From positions 21,886,001 through 21,950,000 of the forward strand of contig OX597819.1 of NCBI GenBank assembly GCA_951406725.2: 64,000 nucleotides of DNA. Reading direction: 5' to 3'. A model generated the notes under the pieces. That model was not told the DNA's origin. It saw only the letters and a program-made list of their open reading frames with translations, and made no database searches. The position numbers were made by a program, and so were the translations under genes. Below, in pieces: positions 10,916 to 57,440 of this stretch (the first letter of the stretch is position 1; each line of letters opens with the position of its first letter). The DNA comes from Octopus vulgaris. Taxonomy: Eukaryota.

Positions 10916-11169
10916 GTATAATAATAATAATAATAATTATACTAATAATAATAATAAGAAGAAGAAGATGAAGAAGAAGAAGAAGAAGACGAAGAAGAAG
11001 AAGACGAAGAAGAAGAAGACGAAGAAGAAGAACAACAGCAACAACAACAACAAACAGAGAGATTTCTAATTAAATTCCAAATACAATAAATTTCAGAATT
11101 AGAATTACTGGAGACGAACACAGAAAAAGCTAAGCGTATGAAAACCCGTGCTAAAACTGTTTTTTTTTT

Positions 11170-11690
11170 ATTTCGATATTCTTACTGATAAATAGCAAAA
11201 GAACACCTCTCAATGGTAAATACCAAGCAGAGCTGATAGTGCCGATGTTTACAAAGCCCTTATCCATCAAGGGTTAGTGTCTCTGGCTTAAAATCAGAAA
11301 CAGAAGCGTTTATCATAGCAGCAGGAGATCAATGCCTACCTACAAAGAACTACCTGGCCAACATATTAAAGAACGGCAATGGCCCACATGACGTGTATGT
11401 AAGCAACAAAATGAACCCATTGATCATGTTGTCTCCATTTGCAGTATTCTTCCGCCTACAGAGTATCACAACAGGCATGATAGAGCTGCACAATATATTT
11501 ACTGGATAATTTTGCAAAAGCTTGGACCTGCCCCATAATAAAAACTGGTGGGAACACAAACCATCTGCACTGCTTGAAAATGATTACATCTCAACCCTGT
11601 GAAACTTCACCATTCAAACTGACGGAAAGACAGGTGCTAATAGGCCAGACAGACTTCAGACAATAATCATGTCTCCACATTGATATGACT
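11170..11690 (+). pseudogene. Decayed RLE-type LINE fragment
   Basis: SGLKSETEAFIIAAGDQCLPTKNY, NRHDR, NWWEHKP, NFTIQTD, ANRPD and CLHIDMT. It is fused at ~11683-11692 to the opposite-strand Tx1 fossil. Confidence 0.8.
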
Positions 11691-13140
11691 GCTACCCTCC
11701 ACCCACTCTCGACAGACCACTTGATGAGAATATCTCATAGTCATCGAAAATGGTCGCTAGTTCTTGCACATTAGAAATCTTTGTCTCGCTAATTGGAACC
11801 ACATCTAAATTGAGTGACATGAAGTCCTTGACAAGTGACCTTGATTCCAAGCTGACCCCATGTCATGTACATCCACACAATCCACTCTGAAAACGAGCAC
11901 GTTTATCGGAGAAACATATGGAAGAAGGTGACTTACCTTGGATTTTGGTGCGGTTCGGTTGATTCAGTCGCCTCGTCTGGAGTATTATCATTGATGAAGG
12001 CCCTTCCCAAAGTCCTTTTGCCCGGCTTTAGCCTAAAGAGCCCAATGTCTTTTGGTTATTGTTTATGGTCTAGTTATGTGCTTGTGTCAGTTTTTATAAG
12101 TTGTCATGGGGAATTTTCAACAGAAGTTCGGTGAACCCTGCTCCTTTTGTATGAATATTCGTGTTGTTCACTACTTCCCGTATCAGCTCGCTGTTGCTTT
12201 TGCAAACGACTGTGAAGTTGATGAGGCTTTTGGCTACTGTGGTCACTTGTAAGGGTTGTTCTTGTGATTGTTGTTTCTCTTCGTGTATTTGTTTCGGTTT
12301 TGGTAGTTGAATGAATGTGCATTGCTTTTGTCGTTGGGATTTGGGTGAGTGTGTCGGTGTGGTTAGTGTAGCTGATGGATTAGGTGGAGTTTCCTCGTCC
12401 TATCTTTTCATTTTCAGTTTAGGATGGCCTATTTTTAAAACTATTTTTCCACTTTTCCCCAACACAAGACCTTCTGGGCGGATTCAATTCCTCCTCGTCA
12501 AATGATAAGGCTCCTGAATTGCCAGAGTCGTGAGTACATGGCGCATGAGTTGCCCGCGTGTAGAGATGGTCGGGCGTTTCTTATTTCCAGCGCTACAGTT
12601 GTTGGTGTCGCTGTTGTGATGAGATTCCTCCGTTGAAGACGGTGCTTTAATAGCTGTTGCTGCAAAGATTGTTGTTGCAGCTATTGGCCTTCTTGTGGTG
12701 GAGGCAGTGGTAGCAGAGCCGCCGTTCCTCTAGCTCCATTTTGTTGTTGTGGGTAGAAGCCCATCAAATGTGTTAGACCCACAAGTGAGGCACTTCGGCT
12801 TTCTGCCTTCCACCACGACCTAAAGTTATGATCGTTAGGCAGCTCGATAAAGTCAGGGAGCTTGTGCAGGGATTCCGGGTTTACCTGGATCAAACTCTCC
12901 AACCCGATCCCGGTCCATTCTTCTTTCGATATTTTCTTAATTTCTAGAAACAAATCTGGGCCTTCGACCTCGCCGCACGCAACCAACCACCAAATGATGA
13001 AGAAGAAGAAGAAGAAGAAGAAGAAGAAGAAGAAGAAGAAGAAGAAGAAGAAGAAGAAGAAGAAGAAGAAGAAGAAGAAGAAGAAGAAGAAGAAGAAGAA
13101 GAGTGACGCGAACACGAGTAGAAGGTGATGATGAGTAGAA
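11683..13140 (-). pseudogene. Decayed Tx1-clade LINE: ORF1 C-terminal half, spacer and N-terminus of the ORF2 APE domain
   Basis: ESLHKLPDFIELPND/VVVEGRKPKCLTCGS resembles the intact ORF1 IESLPDKIYLENG..VMAEGKKPRCYKCGS. FRVDCVDVHDMGSAWNQGHL..SLNLDVVPISETKIS..VGG resembles the intact ORF2 LKLGCVNARGLASAWKQGYL..SLDVDIVAISETRLS..GGG. It has frameshifts and an (AAG)n at 12999-13102. Confidence 0.85.
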
Positions 13141-33609: not shown

Positions 33610-34522
<913 letters not shown>

Positions 34523-34825
34523 CTTTTTATTGTAGCCACACAGGGCTAAACACAGAATAAAAATGGACGAAATACAATGTAGAATTTTTTCTTTTCGAGG
34601 TGGGATGGGTGGGGCAAGAAAAAAAAAAAAAAAAAAAAAAACGTTTGATCAATAGGGATCTGTGGGTTGTGTGGTGTATAAAAAAGCAATATATATATAT
34701 ATATAAGGTTCACAGTTTAGGTGTAGTCTTGGAAAGAAAAACCTACAAAAAAGACCAAGGTCACCTCAGGCAATTCGAAAAAGAACACATGAGTAAGTCG
34801 CCTTACTTCTCGTTGTCTCTTTTGG

Positions 34826-37800
34826 TTACAGATTTATGCTTAAAATAGTGTCGTCTTTCATACTGACCATTTTTGCCACTTTTACCCACTTTTTATTAAA
34901 ACATTCGTTCGACAAAGCCTTCCTCTCTATTCTCATCCTCCTTTTCAAGTGGTACTTGAAAAAGTTGACGAGAGACTGACCAGAGAGGAAGGTGTTTGTT
35001 TGCAGTCCTTTCAAACGCGTCCACCACACACATTCTTTCGCCATAGCCATCAGCGTAACGAAAACCGTTTTCCCTTCCCGTTTAAAGGAAGGTGGTGGAA
35101 CAATATTCACAATAGACTCGGCCGATAGGCGAGCCTGACCTACACGTGACAACAGCTGTTCGACGAAGGACCACAGCTCTGAAATATCTGGACACTGCAC
35201 GAGTGCGTGCAGAACGGTTTCGTCGCTCTGACCGCATCTCGGGCAGGTCGGTCCGGTGATGGTTTTCGAACCGTGTCTGTAGCTCTTCTCTCGAACAGGT
35301 AGTGCGTCTCGATAGCACTGCCAAGCCAGGGATTTCTGGAAGTTATCCATAGGCCCCGGCCCGAACGTCGTCCTGAACAGGCGGGTTAGGAATTCCTCGT
35401 CGACGCCCAGGTTTGCCCCGAGTGTGTCGTCGGACCTCCCCTCCACTAGTCCTCTATAGAACGCTTTAGTCGTTTGGAAGTTGCACAAGTTTGACCCCGG
35501 TCGGCAGAGCTGCTGTAGAGCTTGGCGACACTCTCGGTGCCAATCGCCCAGTTTCGGTCTCTTTTTGATCCACGTTTGCAGTTCGGTCAGTGAGACGAGC
35601 TGCGGGAAGTCGCGCCTCACAAACGGCGCCCACACCTGTTCACCGTCGTCGATGAATTTCCAGAGATGTCGCAGTCTCAGCGCATGCCTGCGCATCATCA
35701 ACCACGGCATGCCCAGTCCTCCATTCAACGGATGTTGACAGCAAATGGACTTCCTCACCATCGGAACGCCACCCTTCCACAGGAAGCGGAAGAGTATGCG
35801 TTCCAGTTTGGTGATGGTGGCGTCGGGACAAGGTACGACGGTCAGGCGGTAATCGATGACGGATGCGATGTACGCGTTCGCCACCTCCGCCCGGCCTTTT
35901 AGAGACAGCTTTCTCTCGGCCCATGTTTGGCTGAGAGCGACCACTCTACTCGTGATCTCGTCCCAGTTCTTATCCATTTGGAGGTCCGGACTGAACCAGA
36001 CCCCGAGCAATTTAACCGGTCCGTCCGTCCAGCGTCCCACTACTGAGCCGCAGTCGGACGGCATGGGCTTGCTTCTCCAGGTGCCGAGTAGCAAACCCAC
36101 TGACTTTTCCGGGTTAATCTTTGCTCCCGTCACCGTTTCATATTTTCTTAGTGTCTCGCCGACCAGCTCGATGTGCTGGTAGCTCGACACTATGACGGTG
36201 ACATCGTCCGCATATGCCGACACGCTCGTCCCGCAACCCAGTTCCCGTGGGATGCCCCTCAGTGTCGCCAGCTTCCGCAGTAGCGGCTCGAGAGTCAATA
36301 CATACAGAAGCGCCGACAGGGGACACCCCTGACGGACCGAACGCGTGATGTCAAACGGTTTAGACAGGTGACCGTTTACCCGAATCACCGATCGGATGCC
36401 GCTATACAAGGCAGCGATCCAACCGCGGAAGACGGGACCGAAGCCAGCCGCCCTGAGGACGGCCGCCAAGTACCGATGGTCGACCCTATCGAAGGCTTTA
36501 GACTGATCCAAATTTATCAGCGCCCCACCCATGCCAGGATCCTTAACTACCCTGTCCACAATGTAGCGCATCAGATGGAGGTTGTCATGTATGGTTCTGC
36601 CCGGCACGGCGCATGTTTGCGCCCTGTCGACCAGTTTACCAATGACAAGCGCCAACCTCTCGGCTATTACTTTGGCCAAAATTTTCAAATCTGCGTTGAG
36701 CAGAGTGATGGGCCTGAAATTATCTATAAAATTCCCCTTGTTTGAGTCTTTCTTCAGCAACGTCACTGCACCTCGGCTCACGAAACCGGGGATTCTCCCG
36801 TTTTGTTGCCAGTTGCAGTAGACTGATGCCAAGAGGTCGCCAAACAAGTCTGGCATTCGACAATACAGCTCGTAGGGTAAACCATCCAATCCAGGCGACT
36901 TATCCCTCGCGCAGCCCGCCATCGCATCCCACACGTCAGCGGCTGTGATGGGACTTTCACAACACTCCGCCTCTCTTGCCGAGAGCCGCGGCAGGTCGGT
37001 CAGGTAGGCACTGAAATCCATCCCTCGTTCCGACCCACCACTCGCACCAAACAGTCGAGCAAAGTGCTGTTGAAAGGCCTCACACATCCTTTCGGGTTCG
37101 AGTAAACTGCATCCCTGTTGATCTATTAGAGACCGAATGGTTGATCTGTTGCCACGCTGCGCCTCCGCTACCCGGGCCTCTCGCGCAGCTTCAATCCCTT
37201 CGTTCCTTAAGGCACGCATTTTAGCTCTGACGACGCAACCTTCGTGCTTGGCGTTGAGGTGTTGGTCGAGGGCCATCCTCGCAGCTAGCACGTTGGTTGC
37301 GCTGCCAGTGGTAAGTGCCTCTTCTAGTTTCTTAACTAAGTCTCCCTCTACTCTATTTCGTTCTATCGCTAATTCCTTGCTAAACCTAATTGATTCCGAT
37401 TTTATTGCCATTTTCAGGGCGTACCACCAGCGGTTGTTAACGACCGCTCCCGTCAGCGCCCTCTTAATTAACTCGCTAATCCGGTTCCTGTAAACCTGTC
37501 GCGCTAACAGCGACGTGTTCAGTTTCCAGTAACCGGGACCCTGCCTATGTGTTTTATCTAAGTCGAGCGTACACGTAACAAATTTGTGATCTGTGTAGCT
37601 GACTATTTTAAATTGTGGACATCCTACACTATCCCTATCCGCTGTCCTGCATAGAATTCTATCTAGATAAGATCTCGACGATCCGACGCGGTTTGTCCAA
37701 GTCCACGTTGGCACGTTCGGATGGTCGAGTCGGAACCTGTCAGACAAATGGAAACGTCTGAGCAGGTCTTTGAGGCTCTTACACCCCCTTCTATTCCTAT

Positions 37801-38275
37801 CCCTTCCCACATAATCTAGATGCGTGTCCAAGGTAGCGTTCCAATCCCCTACTAACAGTAAAGGTCTAGACGTACCCAGGAAAACCTCTAGACGTCTGAA
37901 GAAATCCGCCCGACCCGTTAAGGACGGTGCATAAACTGCCATCAGACGGAATGCACACCCATTTCTGCCATCCACGTCCAAGACAACCAGCCTACCCTCC
38001 GGGTCTAGGAATATTGCTCTTACTTTTACCTTTAGACTCTTTCGAAAAAGCACCGCAGTACCTCCACCACCCATGTTCGGCAGACAGGGAGAAAAATAAA
38101 TGTCAAATTGATTGCCAAACATGGACTCGAGGGCCCGCGGCTTACTGAGTCTGGTTTCGCTGATAGCTACTATATCCACGTCCAGTGACTTGATGTCGTT
38201 TAGAAGGTAACCTTGCTTCCAAGCCGACGCCAAGCCACGCGCATTCACACAACCTAATTTAAGCATACTTGACAA
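34826..38275 (-). CDS. Tx1-type ORF2: AP endonuclease, reverse transcriptase and C-terminal zinc finger (1149 aa from TTG; first ATG at 38266)
   Basis: APE motifs GCVNARG, ISETR, VYAP, VGDWN, YLDRI and TDH. RT motifs SPGLDG, FRPITLLNADLK, DQSKAFDRV, RQGCPLS and YADD. C-terminal CPRC..ETVLHALVQC. Confidence 0.97.
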   Translation of the reverse strand: MSSMLKLGCVNARGLASAWKQGYLLNDIKSLDVDIVAISETRLSKPRALESMFGNQFDIYFSPCLPNMGGGGTAVLFRKSLKVKVRAIFLDPEGRLVVLDVDGRNGCAFRLMAVYAPSLTGRADFFRRLEVFLGTSRPLLLVGDWNATLDTHLDYVGRDRNRRGCKSLKDLLRRFHLSDRFRLDHPNVPTWTWTNRVGSSRSYLDRILCRTADRDSVGCPQFKIVSYTDHKFVTCTLDLDKTHRQGPGYWKLNTSLLARQVYRNRISELIKRALTGAVVNNRWWYALKMAIKSESIRFSKELAIERNRVEGDLVKKLEEALTTGSATNVLAARMALDQHLNAKHEGCVVRAKMRALRNEGIEAAREARVAEAQRGNRSTIRSLIDQQGCSLLEPERMCEAFQQHFARLFGASGGSERGMDFSAYLTDLPRLSAREAECCESPITAADVWDAMAGCARDKSPGLDGLPYELYCRMPDLFGDLLASVYCNWQQNGRIPGFVSRGAVTLLKKDSNKGNFIDNFRPITLLNADLKILAKVIAERLALVIGKLVDRAQTCAVPGRTIHDNLHLMRYIVDRVVKDPGMGGALINLDQSKAFDRVDHRYLAAVLRAAGFGPVFRGWIAALYSGIRSVIRVNGHLSKPFDITRSVRQGCPLSALLYVLTLEPLLRKLATLRGIPRELGCGTSVSAYADDVTVIVSSYQHIELVGETLRKYETVTGAKINPEKSVGLLLGTWRSKPMPSDCGSVVGRWTDGPVKLLGVWFSPDLQMDKNWDEITSRVVALSQTWAERKLSLKGRAEVANAYIASVIDYRLTVVPCPDATITKLERILFRFLWKGGVPMVRKSICCQHPLNGGLGMPWLMMRRHALRLRHLWKFIDDGEQVWAPFVRRDFPQLVSLTELQTWIKKRPKLGDWHRECRQALQQLCRPGSNLCNFQTTKAFYRGLVEGRSDDTLGANLGVDEEFLTRLFRTTFGPGPMDNFQKSLAWQCYRDALPVREKSYRHGSKTITGPTCPRCGQSDETVLHALVQCPDISELWSFVEQLLSRVGQARLSAESIVNIVPPPSFKREGKTVFVTLMAMAKECVWWTRLKGLQTNTFLSGQSLVNFFKYHLKRRMRIERKALSNECFNKKWVKVAKMVSMKDDTILSINL

Positions 38276-38332
38276 TTACGAAAATTGTGTTTTACACACT
38301 ATATTAGAAGAGACAAGAGGCAAGAAGTGAGG

Positions 38333-40204
38333 TCACTTACTCATTTTAAAAGTTTCATTTTTTTCTTCTTCTTTTGTATCGTTTTTGATGAGGTGTTTGT
38401 ATAGTTTTTTCGACAGGTATCGTTGATACCCGCCTACCGCATTCGGAAATAATGTTTTCAGTATGTGGTGTTGTGCTTGTGTTATGTGTAAAATTCTGAT
38501 GTGTTTCGGTGGTGTGGTGTGCGGATGATTGTTTGTCTTAAAATCATCTTCACAGACGACCATGTTAGATTTGATGTAGTCCATTAATTCTTTATTGTCT
38601 GTGTCTATTGCAGTTAGTTGTGTGTGTGGTTTTACGGGTTCATTACTTTTTTGATTGTCTAGGGGAATGTTGTCCTGAGTGAGATATCTCCCTGCTTTAA
38701 TTCCTTGTTTGGTGGATTTTTTGGATCTTTTTCTTTTACCCCCTGTGGCTATTTGCCATTCCGTCGAACTTTCGTCGTCCGAGGTATCAGTATGGGGTAG
38801 AGGAAAAAGAACAGGATCACTATGTATGCTTGTATAAATTGTTGATGTTTTGTGCGGTGTTTGTGTTGTTGTGGTGTTAGGGGTAGCATTTGTCTTCTCG
38901 TCAGTGTTTTCTGTCTTTTTAATTGTCGTCCTGGGTGTGGGTGTGGGTCGATTTTTTGAAGATTCAACAAGTTTAATTGGTTGTGACGTCAACGGTGATT
39001 GTGTTGGTACTGTTTTTCTTGGTGATGTTGTTGGGGTTTGTTGTTTTTCTTGGCGTTGTTCCATAATTGAGTGTGTTGGTGTTGGTGTTGGCAACAAAGG
39101 GATTTTATTTGTTTTCTGAATTGTTCTTTCTTGTTTTTTCTGTACCAGATCGCACTTGGCAATCAAATGTTCGGGGCTGCCACATTTGTAGCATCTAGGC
39201 TTTTTGCCTTCTGCCATAACATATAGGCATTGCCCATTCTCCAAGTATATCTTGTCGGGTAGGCTCTCGATAGAGGCCCCCTCAATCTGGATGGTCACAA
39301 CTACTGTTTTTCCACCCCAATTGTCGTTTAGGTACACGGCTGTTTCTAGAATATTGATCTTTTTCAAGTGGTAACAGATTGCCCCTGTTATCCATTTGTT
39401 CGGCATATCGGGGGGTACATTTCTGATAGTAATTCTACTCACCCTCTGGTTTTTATAATAAGGGACCATGATGATTTCATCATTTCCCAGAGACTCAGTA
39501 GAGTGAGCTTTTGCCACTTCCTGGTTAGGGAAGCGGACCACTACTGTGTTAAACTGTGGACCCCAGTTTATATACTCTTTTTCTTTCATTATATTTTTTA
39601 AACATTTCTCCACATCAGTTTTTGTAATCTGTTCATTTGGTTTTTTGTTTTTTCTAATAATTTTATATACAATTGTCTTATTTTCAATTTCTTGTTTTAT
39701 ATGTTGAGGTGTATGCAGGACTAAATCTTGTCCACGGGTTGTAAAGAGAGCTCTTGTTTCTATGAGCTCTTCATTTGTGAATGTAACAATCTCCTTTTTC
39801 TGGCGAAGAATATCTGCGAAATTTACTGTTGTTGACTTTTTTGTATTGGCATCTTCACTATTAGATAGTTCATTTTTATTGTTGTTCTTGTTGTTGCTGT
39901 TGTTTTTGTCAATAGTTTTCGTTTCAGTTTTATTTTTATCATTTATGTTGGTCGTGGTAGTGGTGGTGGTGGTGGTGGAGGTGGTGGTGGTAGCAGTTGT
40001 TGTCTCGTGGTTGCTGTTGTTAGTGGTGGTGGTGGCGTTGGTGACAGGGCTGTTAACGCACGTGGTTGCAGCGTTCCTTTCACCGAATTTCACGTTGGCA
40101 TTTTCCGTGCGAACGTTCTTTTTTTTTTCTGTCGTTTCCAGACTAGGAAAATGTTGTTCCAAAAAAGAACGCGACCAGCGTTCAACAATAAAATTTCTAG
40201 ACAT
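38333..40204 (-). CDS. Retrotransposon ORF1 (gag-like nucleic-acid-binding protein), 623 aa
   Basis: Single CX2CX4HX4C knuckle CYKCGSPEHLIAKC (39152-39193) after an RRM-like region (RITIRNVP). It also has T/N- and T/P-rich linkers and a basic GGKRKRSKK. It is in the same frame as ORF2. Confidence 0.93.
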   Translation of the reverse strand: MSRNFIVERWSRSFLEQHFPSLETTEKKKNVRTENANVKFGERNAATTCVNSPVTNATTTTNNSNHETTTATTTTSTTTTTTTTTNINDKNKTETKTIDKNNSNNKNNNKNELSNSEDANTKKSTTVNFADILRQKKEIVTFTNEELIETRALFTTRGQDLVLHTPQHIKQEIENKTIVYKIIRKNKKPNEQITKTDVEKCLKNIMKEKEYINWGPQFNTVVVRFPNQEVAKAHSTESLGNDEIIMVPYYKNQRVSRITIRNVPPDMPNKWITGAICYHLKKINILETAVYLNDNWGGKTVVVTIQIEGASIESLPDKIYLENGQCLYVMAEGKKPRCYKCGSPEHLIAKCDLVQKKQERTIQKTNKIPLLPTPTPTHSIMEQRQEKQQTPTTSPRKTVPTQSPLTSQPIKLVESSKNRPTPTPRTTIKKTENTDEKTNATPNTTTTQTPHKTSTIYTSIHSDPVLFPLPHTDTSDDESSTEWQIATGGKRKRSKKSTKQGIKAGRYLTQDNIPLDNQKSNEPVKPHTQLTAIDTDNKELMDYIKSNMVVCEDDFKTNNHPHTTPPKHIRILHITQAQHHILKTLFPNAVGGYQRYLSKKLYKHLIKNDTKEEEKNETFKMSK

Positions 40205-40404
40205 TTTCTAATGTCGAGAAGAAAATAACAGAAATGAAATGGGGTCGAAACTGCCCCTAGGGGCGAATTCCTCCCTTGGAATGGCACTCAAATGAAAGTT
40301 GGTTGCCTTACACACCTTATTTGCAAAAATCTACACAAAAATTGGCCTATAAATAGTCAAAATAAATGATTACCTTCGGAGCTGAAACGACATCACATCC
40401 GTCA

Positions 40405-56855: not shown

Positions 56856-57440
56856 GGAGGTGCGTGGCTTAGTGGTTTGGGCGTTGGACTAATGATCGTA
56901 AGACTGTGGCTTCGATTCCTGCAGCGGGCGACACGTTGTGGTCTTGAGCAAGCCACTTCATTTCACGTTGCTCCAATCCATTCAGCTAGCAAAAACGAGC
57001 ACACCGGCGACAGATCGGCGTCCCGTCCAGGTTAAGAATTTATACAACACTGAAACCGGGAAACCGGCTCTTATCAGTCAGTATGACTCAGACTTTTTAT
57101 GTTTTACTTTTGTTATACTGACGACACGTGGCTTAGTGGTTGGGAGGGTTACATTTCACGTCCGCAAGGTCGTGAGTTCGATTACTGAAAGTGCGTTGCG
57201 TCTTGGGTAGCATACTCCATTTCATACATTCCAGTCTACTCAGGAGGAAAAGATGAATAATACCTGTAATTCAAAAGGACCAAGCCTTGTCACGTTCTGT
57301 GTTACGCTGAATTTCCTTGGGAATTACGTTAAGGGTGACACATGTCTGTGGAGTTCTCAGCCACCCACATGTTACTTTCAGGAGCAGACCGCTCAGTTGA
57401 TTGCATAAACTGAATTCGTCGTCGCAACCGACGGAATGAA
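56856..57440 (+). mobile_element. Two tandem family-C-related tRNA SINEs
   Basis: GCGTGGCTTAGTGGTT..TTCGATTCC..CTTGAGCAAGCCACTTCATTTCACGTTGCTCCA, followed by a second head ACGTGGCTTAGTGGTT..GAGTTCGATT at ~57125. Confidence 0.7.

Follow-up and report, generated by a model that had tools for sequence, protein, structure and literature searches.

LINEs of the Tx1 clade have a target preference for microsatellites or for multicopy RNA genes. Among the families that insert into microsatellites, Koshi targets (TTC)n, Kibi targets (TC)n, and crocodilian Tx1 elements target (TTCC)n or (TTTC)n (PMC4494074). In Octopus vulgaris, 13 recently active L1-Tx1 families with 421 insertions have been described (PMC13282606). 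Human L1 splices from donors in its 5'UTR, which removes promoter or ORF1 sequence and yields the forms known as SpORF2 (PMC2896524) and SpIREs (PMC5860796); for TART, the part of the description used here mentions introns only in antisense RNA (PMC1636488). The L1-like element Zorro3 requires the ATG of its ORF2 (PMC1965478). Among Ty1/copia elements, Arabidopsis EVD produces a spliced subgenomic mRNA for Gag alone (PMC5580714) and Drosophila copia a spliced 2.1-kb Gag RNA (bioRxiv 2023.05.27.542554). In the Tx1 literature, we found no description of a splice signal at the end of ORF1, and the main text of PMC9115989 contains 0 occurrences of 'splic' and of 'Tx1'. A search of titles and abstracts, with subscription journals and Repbase mostly outside its scope, returned neither a report of a donor conserved at the ORF1 stop of a LINE nor one of a spliced ORF1-ORF2 fusion.

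We analysed a 64-kb stretch of O. vulgaris DNA (contig OX597819.1), referred to as the window, in which a preliminary description had proposed a 50-nt mini-intron (11887..11936, minus strand) joining ORF1 to ORF2 of a fossil Tx1-like element. Our results suggest that this segment, in a dead Tx1-like LINE, is probably an ordinary junction of ORF1, spacer and ORF2, and that the 50-nt 'intron' is no fusion device.

Fossil and intact LINE copies in the window

The fossil is a decayed copy of a two-ORF LINE that spans approximately 11690-13010 on the minus strand. What is left of it begins within ORF1 and comprises the zinc-knuckle region, the C-terminal domain of ORF1 and approximately 70 residues of the endonuclease. 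The ORF1 remnant (11929..13010, minus) carries the zinc-knuckle region at ~12775-12995 and the C-terminal domain at ~12000-12230, interrupted by several stops and frameshifts. The ORF2 remnant (11695..11900, minus) corresponds to the N-terminal ~70 residues of the APE endonuclease; its frame is shifted once, and several conserved positions are substituted. A GTG (11898..11900, minus) stands where ORF2 relatives have their start Met, at the same spacing to the conserved Asn position as in P0004, and is probably the decayed start codon of ORF2. Directly 5' of the fossil lies a (TTC)n array (13020..13100, minus); TTC-like repeats also occur near 11000-11035. The 3' end is missing, and the copy is truncated by a decayed LINE fragment in antisense orientation (11200..11690, plus), which is unrelated to it, had no Pfam match and has motifs that we take to resemble a Dong/R4-type C-terminus. 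Truncated at both ends and carrying many stops, the fossil copy does nothing now.

The fossil is homologous to an intact two-ORF Tx1-like LINE at 34521..40404 on the minus strand (ORF2 start, tblastn E 3e-7). The intact element lies within a (CTAT)n array, with flanks of ~0.65 kb and 0.9 kb, and carries an AATAAA at 34531 near its 3' end. Its ORF1 (38333..40204, minus) encodes 623 aa with a CCHC zinc knuckle and ends AGT AAG TGA; its ORF2 (34826..38266, minus) encodes 1146 aa and has its own ATG. Pfam profiles matched ORF2 as Exo_endo_phos (E 1e-16), RVT_1 (E 5e-30) and zf-RVT (E 8e-6), and the best PDB matches were to the L1 endonuclease. The intact copy thus shows the L1/Tx1-type ORF2 architecture of APE endonuclease, reverse transcriptase and C-terminal zinc-binding domain. 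It also has a separate upstream ORF1 of the CCHC type, in which Pfam found the zinc knuckle only (zf-CCHC E 0.002, slightly below the curated cut-off); the fossil matches this zinc-knuckle region. The Atlas neighbours of ORF1 were CCHC proteins, the two best being commonest in Mollusca, and one ORF1 relative was an O. vulgaris predicted protein with 80% identity over 18% of the query. Following a long low-complexity linker, ORF1 contains a conserved C-terminal domain of ~75 residues (38336-38630, minus), which is also present in P0014, P0019, P0023, P0025, P0028, P0030 and P0092. The G+C content of the intact element is 50-56% in ORF2 and 38-41% in ORF1. A donor-like AAG/GTAATC (40368-40376, minus) lies ~30 nt into the 5'UTR; joined to the AG at 38268, it would give an ORF2-only RNA like human SpORF2.

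Both intact ORFs are fully open, and the copy is possibly a recent, microsatellite-targeted insertion. The designation Tx1-like refers to architecture and apparent target preference. The intact copy is flanked by (CTAT)n on both sides and the fossil lies beside (TTC)n, one copy each, and in a window so rich in microsatellites (AT, CATA, CTAT and TTC arrays) single copies cannot show target specificity. Tblastn with 156 proteins and blastn found no further DNA copies in the 64-kb window; a weak tblastn match at 57338-57430 (minus) to part of P0070 (E 0.001) probably does not concern its LINE portion. A scan of bacterial and archaeal genomes gave a single irrelevant Mucilaginibacter locus. No recognisable host coding exon was found in the window: 37 longer ORFs had no convincing Pfam match, and the one hit above its curated cut-off, to Synaptobrevin (27.2 vs 26.4 bits), is probably a hydrophobic repeat.

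The proposed intron and the frame of ORF1

The letters CCAAG/GTAAGT…TTTTCAG/AGTGG are present exactly at 11936-11887 on the minus strand and bound 50 nt, with GT-AG ends, a consensus donor AG/GTAAGT (11936) and TTTTCAG (11887). That they lie at the ORF1-ORF2 junction of a Tx1-like fossil was borne out by the homology to the intact LINE. The 50 nt are better read as the last codons of ORF1, a pyrimidine-rich spacer of ~28 nt and the first four to five codons of ORF2, and the ORF2 frame is open through their whole length.

That the intact element reaches the same in-frame outcome had been taken to argue against chance. The intron as a whole did not exceed chance: the pattern GTAAGT-N30-60-YYYYYAG occurred three times in the window vs 1.86 expected, and 29 of 100 shuffles reached three. 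The octamer AGGTAAGT occurred once (2.23 expected). For 14,211 positions drawn at random outside repeats, an AG of the required phase lay 40-100 nt downstream in 68% of cases, a YAG in 42% and a YAG with a short pyrimidine run in 10%; being in frame therefore carries little weight. Nor does the intact element supply a separate case of the same outcome. The DNA of the two copies aligns across the junction with the GTAAGT hexamers in register (score 361; 200 shuffles gave a mean of 112 and a best of 194), which makes the junctions homologues and the motif one inherited trait, with no independent evidence from the intact element. If the donors are homologous, a difference in phase between them is a warning sign, not support.

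The ORF1 frame at the fossil donor decides whether the 50-nt splice leads into the endonuclease. Direct alignment of the intact ORF1 tail with the fossil scored 38 (shuffled mean 35). This was no better than shuffled and could not fix the frame; hence, 143 ORF1 relatives were collected, nine of which extend past the conserved C-terminal motif. A profile search for more ORF1 C-termini returned only two proteins that were already known (the profile, of length 400, was dominated by its first row). The closest relative of the fossil domain was P0025 (local score 81, over a stretch without the tail), and the fossil grouped with P0025 and P0030 in the tree (95/95; tail included). P0025 and P0030 end in Q-G-K and E-G-K-S. 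Without any frameshift after its last conserved motif, K-G-L-W-E-G, translation of the fossil runs into …Q-G-K-S over the donor. The intact ORF1 ends S-K-stop with its donor in phase 1, and its TGA aligns with TCA in the fossil. When P0025 was forced to end near the donor, the score was 76 in phase 1 vs 68 in phase 2; of the other relatives, P0092 gave phase 1, P0028 weakly gave phase 2 and the rest were uninformative.

These results suggest that the fossil donor (11931..11936, minus) is most likely in phase 1, in the codons Q-G-K. Phase 1 is favoured, not proven, because the last 100 nt of the fossil ORF1 contain at least one indel, P0028 points weakly to phase 2, and the DNA alignment to the intact element puts part of the fossil tail in the phase-2 frame. 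Both the closest relatives and the intact homologue thus speak against the phase-2 ORF1 frame of the preliminary description, and its TAA stop inside the donor was not confirmed. The phase-2 join does yield …QNPR-VDCVDV… in the endonuclease frame, as had been stated, but with the acceptor in phase 2 and the donor most likely in phase 1, the phases in the fossil are unequal and a 50-nt splice leaves that frame. The only nearby in-frame option for a phase-1 donor is a GAG two bases beyond the CAG (52 nt), which scored 4.1 vs 9.1 for the CAG. Two frames are open across the fossil junction (11863-12029, minus): that of ORF1 in phase 1 stays open until ~11863, and that of ORF2 is open from 11963 onwards; an overlapping-ORF arrangement is therefore possible in the family of the fossil.

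The acceptor side was assessed with a home-made heuristic score, devised after the 3'UTR site described below had been seen, on which the fossil TTTTCAG (11887..11893, minus) would rank 9 among the 243 AGs of the intact element. It lies in the Phe-Arg codons of the endonuclease N-terminus, in ORF2 phase 2, and its CAG follows just after the GTG at the position of the relatives' start Met; it is probably an incidental AG in endonuclease codons. Three AGs follow the donor closely in the intact element (all minus strand). The one at 38299, 42 nt from the donor, ranks 2/243, is in frame and meets a stop that precedes the ORF2 ATG by 9 nt. The second, at 38268 (73 nt), ranks 11/243, is out of frame and directly precedes the ORF2 ATG. 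The third, at 38254 (87 nt), lies inside the codons K-L-G and ranks 82/243. It is the only one giving a full fusion, and splicing would have to pass over the two better AGs, both of which lead to stops. The fossil CAG and the intact TAG are at different codons, both within ORF2 coding sequence, and the fossil has GTGG where the intact element has TTAG, thus no AG at the intact acceptor site. The pyrimidine tract (70% and 80% over 30 nt in the two copies) adjoins the donor, not the acceptor.

We also searched for fused proteins. No endonuclease start was present in the 143 ORF1 relatives (best E 0.88), nor did ORF1 match any of 3,434 long candidates; since most entries of the library are predictions from DNA, both negatives are weak. 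Of 12 ORF2 matches one, P0005 from a sister lineage, has a 466-aa ORF1-like extension running into the endonuclease, with a likeness to P0103 by eye. P0005 keeps the ORF2 Met, and its likeness to ORF1 is lost ~35 residues before; it looks more like a frameshifted copy or gene model. A Met stands just before the endonuclease domain in nine of the ten ORF2 relatives viewed (predicted starts). P0027, which by eye seemed to carry an endonuclease start, had no score against the endonuclease profile, and P0049 and P0071, which join pieces of ORF1 to late pieces of ORF2, have no bearing on the junction.

Readings of the donor-like motif

Unlike the intron as a whole, the position of the donor exceeds chance. 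Each element has exactly one sense GTAAGT, and in both it lies at the end of ORF1: at 11931..11936 in the fossil and at 38335..38340 (minus, phase 1, overlapping the ORF1 stop) in the intact copy. The motif had been singled out as noteworthy, and this much we can support. GTAAGT occurs 22 times in 128 kb (both strands of the window), so that one is expected within 30 nt of a given stop in ~0.5% of cases. The C-terminal ORF1 domains of the two elements share 17% identity, and both use a T-ending Ser or Gly codon followed by AAG at the donor; in the intact ORF1 these are minority codons (AAG, 13 of 70 Lys; AGT, 7 of 35 Ser). The identity between the two donors is marginal, with 6/6 positions at p ~0.06 and 10/12 at p ~0.11 against a background of ~62% in gapped alignments. 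Among the protein relatives, [SCRG]K ends were found in 2/9 that reach past the conserved C-terminal motif vs 2/134 other matches (Fisher p=0.02), and in 3/9 vs 6/134 with one extra residue allowed (p=0.012), for a pattern picked after inspecting the protein ends and with the 134 including P0042, P0052, P0101 and P0103, distant ORF1s with a diverged C-terminal domain and without [S/G]K. Such [S/G]K-type ends lie on both sides of the deepest split in the tree, and six of the nine relatives have neither a terminal [S/G]K nor [S/G]K-x; the ORF1 relatives are linked by common descent and may represent gene models or decayed copies. Taken together, the GTAAGT at the end of ORF1 appears to be an inherited motif, present in two DNA copies and suggested for other elements by their protein ends. 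We lean towards the view that it is under selection at the RNA level.

The highest-scoring acceptor of the intact element is in its 3'UTR (34743..34770, minus), 83 nt after the ORF2 stop, and consists of TGAC, a pyrimidine tract and TAG/G. It ranked first of the 243 AGs of the element and in the top 0.06% of 7,239 AGs in the window, and 4.5% of 2,000 dinucleotide shuffles of the 3'UTR, which is 39% T, reached its score. This site is known from the intact element alone, as the 3' end of the fossil is missing. On paper, an RNA joined from the donor to 34743 lacks ORF2, retains the poly(A) signal at 34531 and adds a few new residues to ORF1 before a stop. We tentatively regard it as a possible partner of the donor.

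Our best explanation, to which we give a probability of about 0.4, combines an ordinary dead junction and the absence of any fusion with a role of the donor in producing an ORF1-only mRNA. In the live family, as in other L1-like elements, the unspliced bicistronic RNA is most likely the message from which ORF2 is made, starting at its own AUG. The GTAAGT would be a real 5' splice donor working with the distant acceptor in the 3'UTR; its use would remove ORF2 and leave a short mRNA with the ORF1 stop in the last exon, from which an excess of ORF1 protein could be made, while the unspliced RNA would supply both ORF2 and the template.

A fusion of ORF1 to ORF2 would require a short intron that removes the ORF1 stop (of 87 nt in the intact family and of 50 or 52 nt in that of the fossil) and would give a single ORF1-endonuclease-reverse transcriptase protein. 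On paper, in-frame products do exist for the 50-nt splice in phase 2, for the 52-nt splice to GAG in phase 1 and for the 87-nt splice; the intact ORF1 tail F-K-M happens to resemble the L-K-L that it would replace, and P0005 offers one extended protein. These points are outweighed by the favoured phase 1, which puts the 50-nt product out of frame, by the poor standing of the GAG and of the AG at 38254 behind better AGs, and by the non-homologous acceptor positions with the pyrimidine tract at the donor side. Moreover, alignment to the L1 endonuclease places the acceptors in the residues just before the conserved Asn, which we take to be the first strand of the enzyme and for which the tails of P0023, P0025 and P0030 would be no substitute. 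Considering also the 68% chance of an in-phase AG, the doubtful nature of P0005 and the lack of fused relatives, weak as the latter is, we consider a fusion in either family improbable, and the 50-nt in-frame fusion is very probably not real.

It is also possible, at a strength that we would still call doubtful, that the motif has no role in splicing. ORF1 would then end in [S/G]-K-stop, or in a stop-rich context for termination and reinitiation, with GTAAGT as an inherited by-product, incidental acceptors and an ordinary bicistronic spacer. This fits the chance level of the whole-intron pattern, the marginal conservation between the two DNA copies and the lack of a terminal [S/G]K in most C-terminal relatives, and one would expect full-length RNA to be lost if its sense strand carried a strong donor (PMC5860796). 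It fits less well with a motif that is unique in each element and sited at the ORF1 stop, or with the use of minority codons in two families that are 17% identical in the adjacent domain. Alternatively, the motif may bind U1 snRNP without productive splicing, or be spliced rarely to a near acceptor in the spacer (in the intact copy, 42 or 73 nt away). This could guard a long A-rich RNA from premature polyadenylation, control export, or bring the ORF1 stop beside the ORF2 AUG and tune reinitiation. Such a role, which we judge unlikely, would account for conservation of the donor but not of the acceptor. In addition to its terminal AATAAA, the intact element contains six internal ones, but four of these lie upstream of the donor. 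The 42-nt splice, with its well-ranked acceptor, would set a stop 9 nt before the ORF2 ATG, but a metazoan intron probably has to be longer than 42 nt, and the fossil has no counterpart of this acceptor; for the minimum intron size in octopus, nothing was found in the literature at title level.

If the ORF1-only reading is true, splicing from a conserved donor at the end of ORF1, a route known from LTR copia, would be a further means of setting the ORF1:ORF2 ratio in LINEs; the excess of ORF1 over ORF2 protein in LINEs is usually ascribed to inefficient reinitiation. Precise ORF2-less copies would then be expected in octopus genomes, as would strong exon-trapping donors at many insertions. In a wider form, which we put forward with reserve, a cephalopod Tx1-like lineage may have kept the donor in its ORF1 end as a spliceosome-dependent expression switch, mainly for an ORF1-only mRNA and possibly with low-rate fusion through a near acceptor. 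Should ORF1-only splicing fail, an ordinary fossil junction is left. The conserved donor-like motif is a modest lead.

Comparison with known elements

Like the microsatellite-targeting Tx1 LINEs (PMC4494074), the octopus elements have two ORFs, with CCHC in ORF1 and APE, RT and zf-RVT in ORF2, and they adjoin (TTC)n (fossil) or lie inside (CTAT)n (intact). They differ from Koshi, Kibi and crocodilian Tx1 in their mollusc host and in the repeat that holds the intact copy, and they are placed by architecture and target preference. With human L1 they share a LINE RNA that has potentially usable donors and acceptors, and spliced forms of L1 can express one ORF and be retrotransposed; the parts of the SpORF2 and SpIRE descriptions used here (PMC2896524, PMC5860796) contain neither a donor at the ORF1 stop nor an ORF1-ORF2 fusion. 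As in Zorro3, the ORFs do not overlap, the spacer is short and compositionally biased, and ORF2 has its own ATG. In Zorro3 that spacer is poly-A, whereas here it is pyrimidine-rich and opens with a perfect donor consensus.

The closest parallel for the proposed role of the donor is the Gag mRNA of Ty1/copia elements. Copia is an LTR element with a single gag-pol ORF and its splicing is experimentally proven, whereas the octopus elements are bicistronic, non-LTR and known here from motifs alone. In both arrangements, a single splicing event close to the end of the structural gene yields, or in octopus would yield, a short mRNA for an excess of the structural protein, and the unspliced RNA provides the enzymes.
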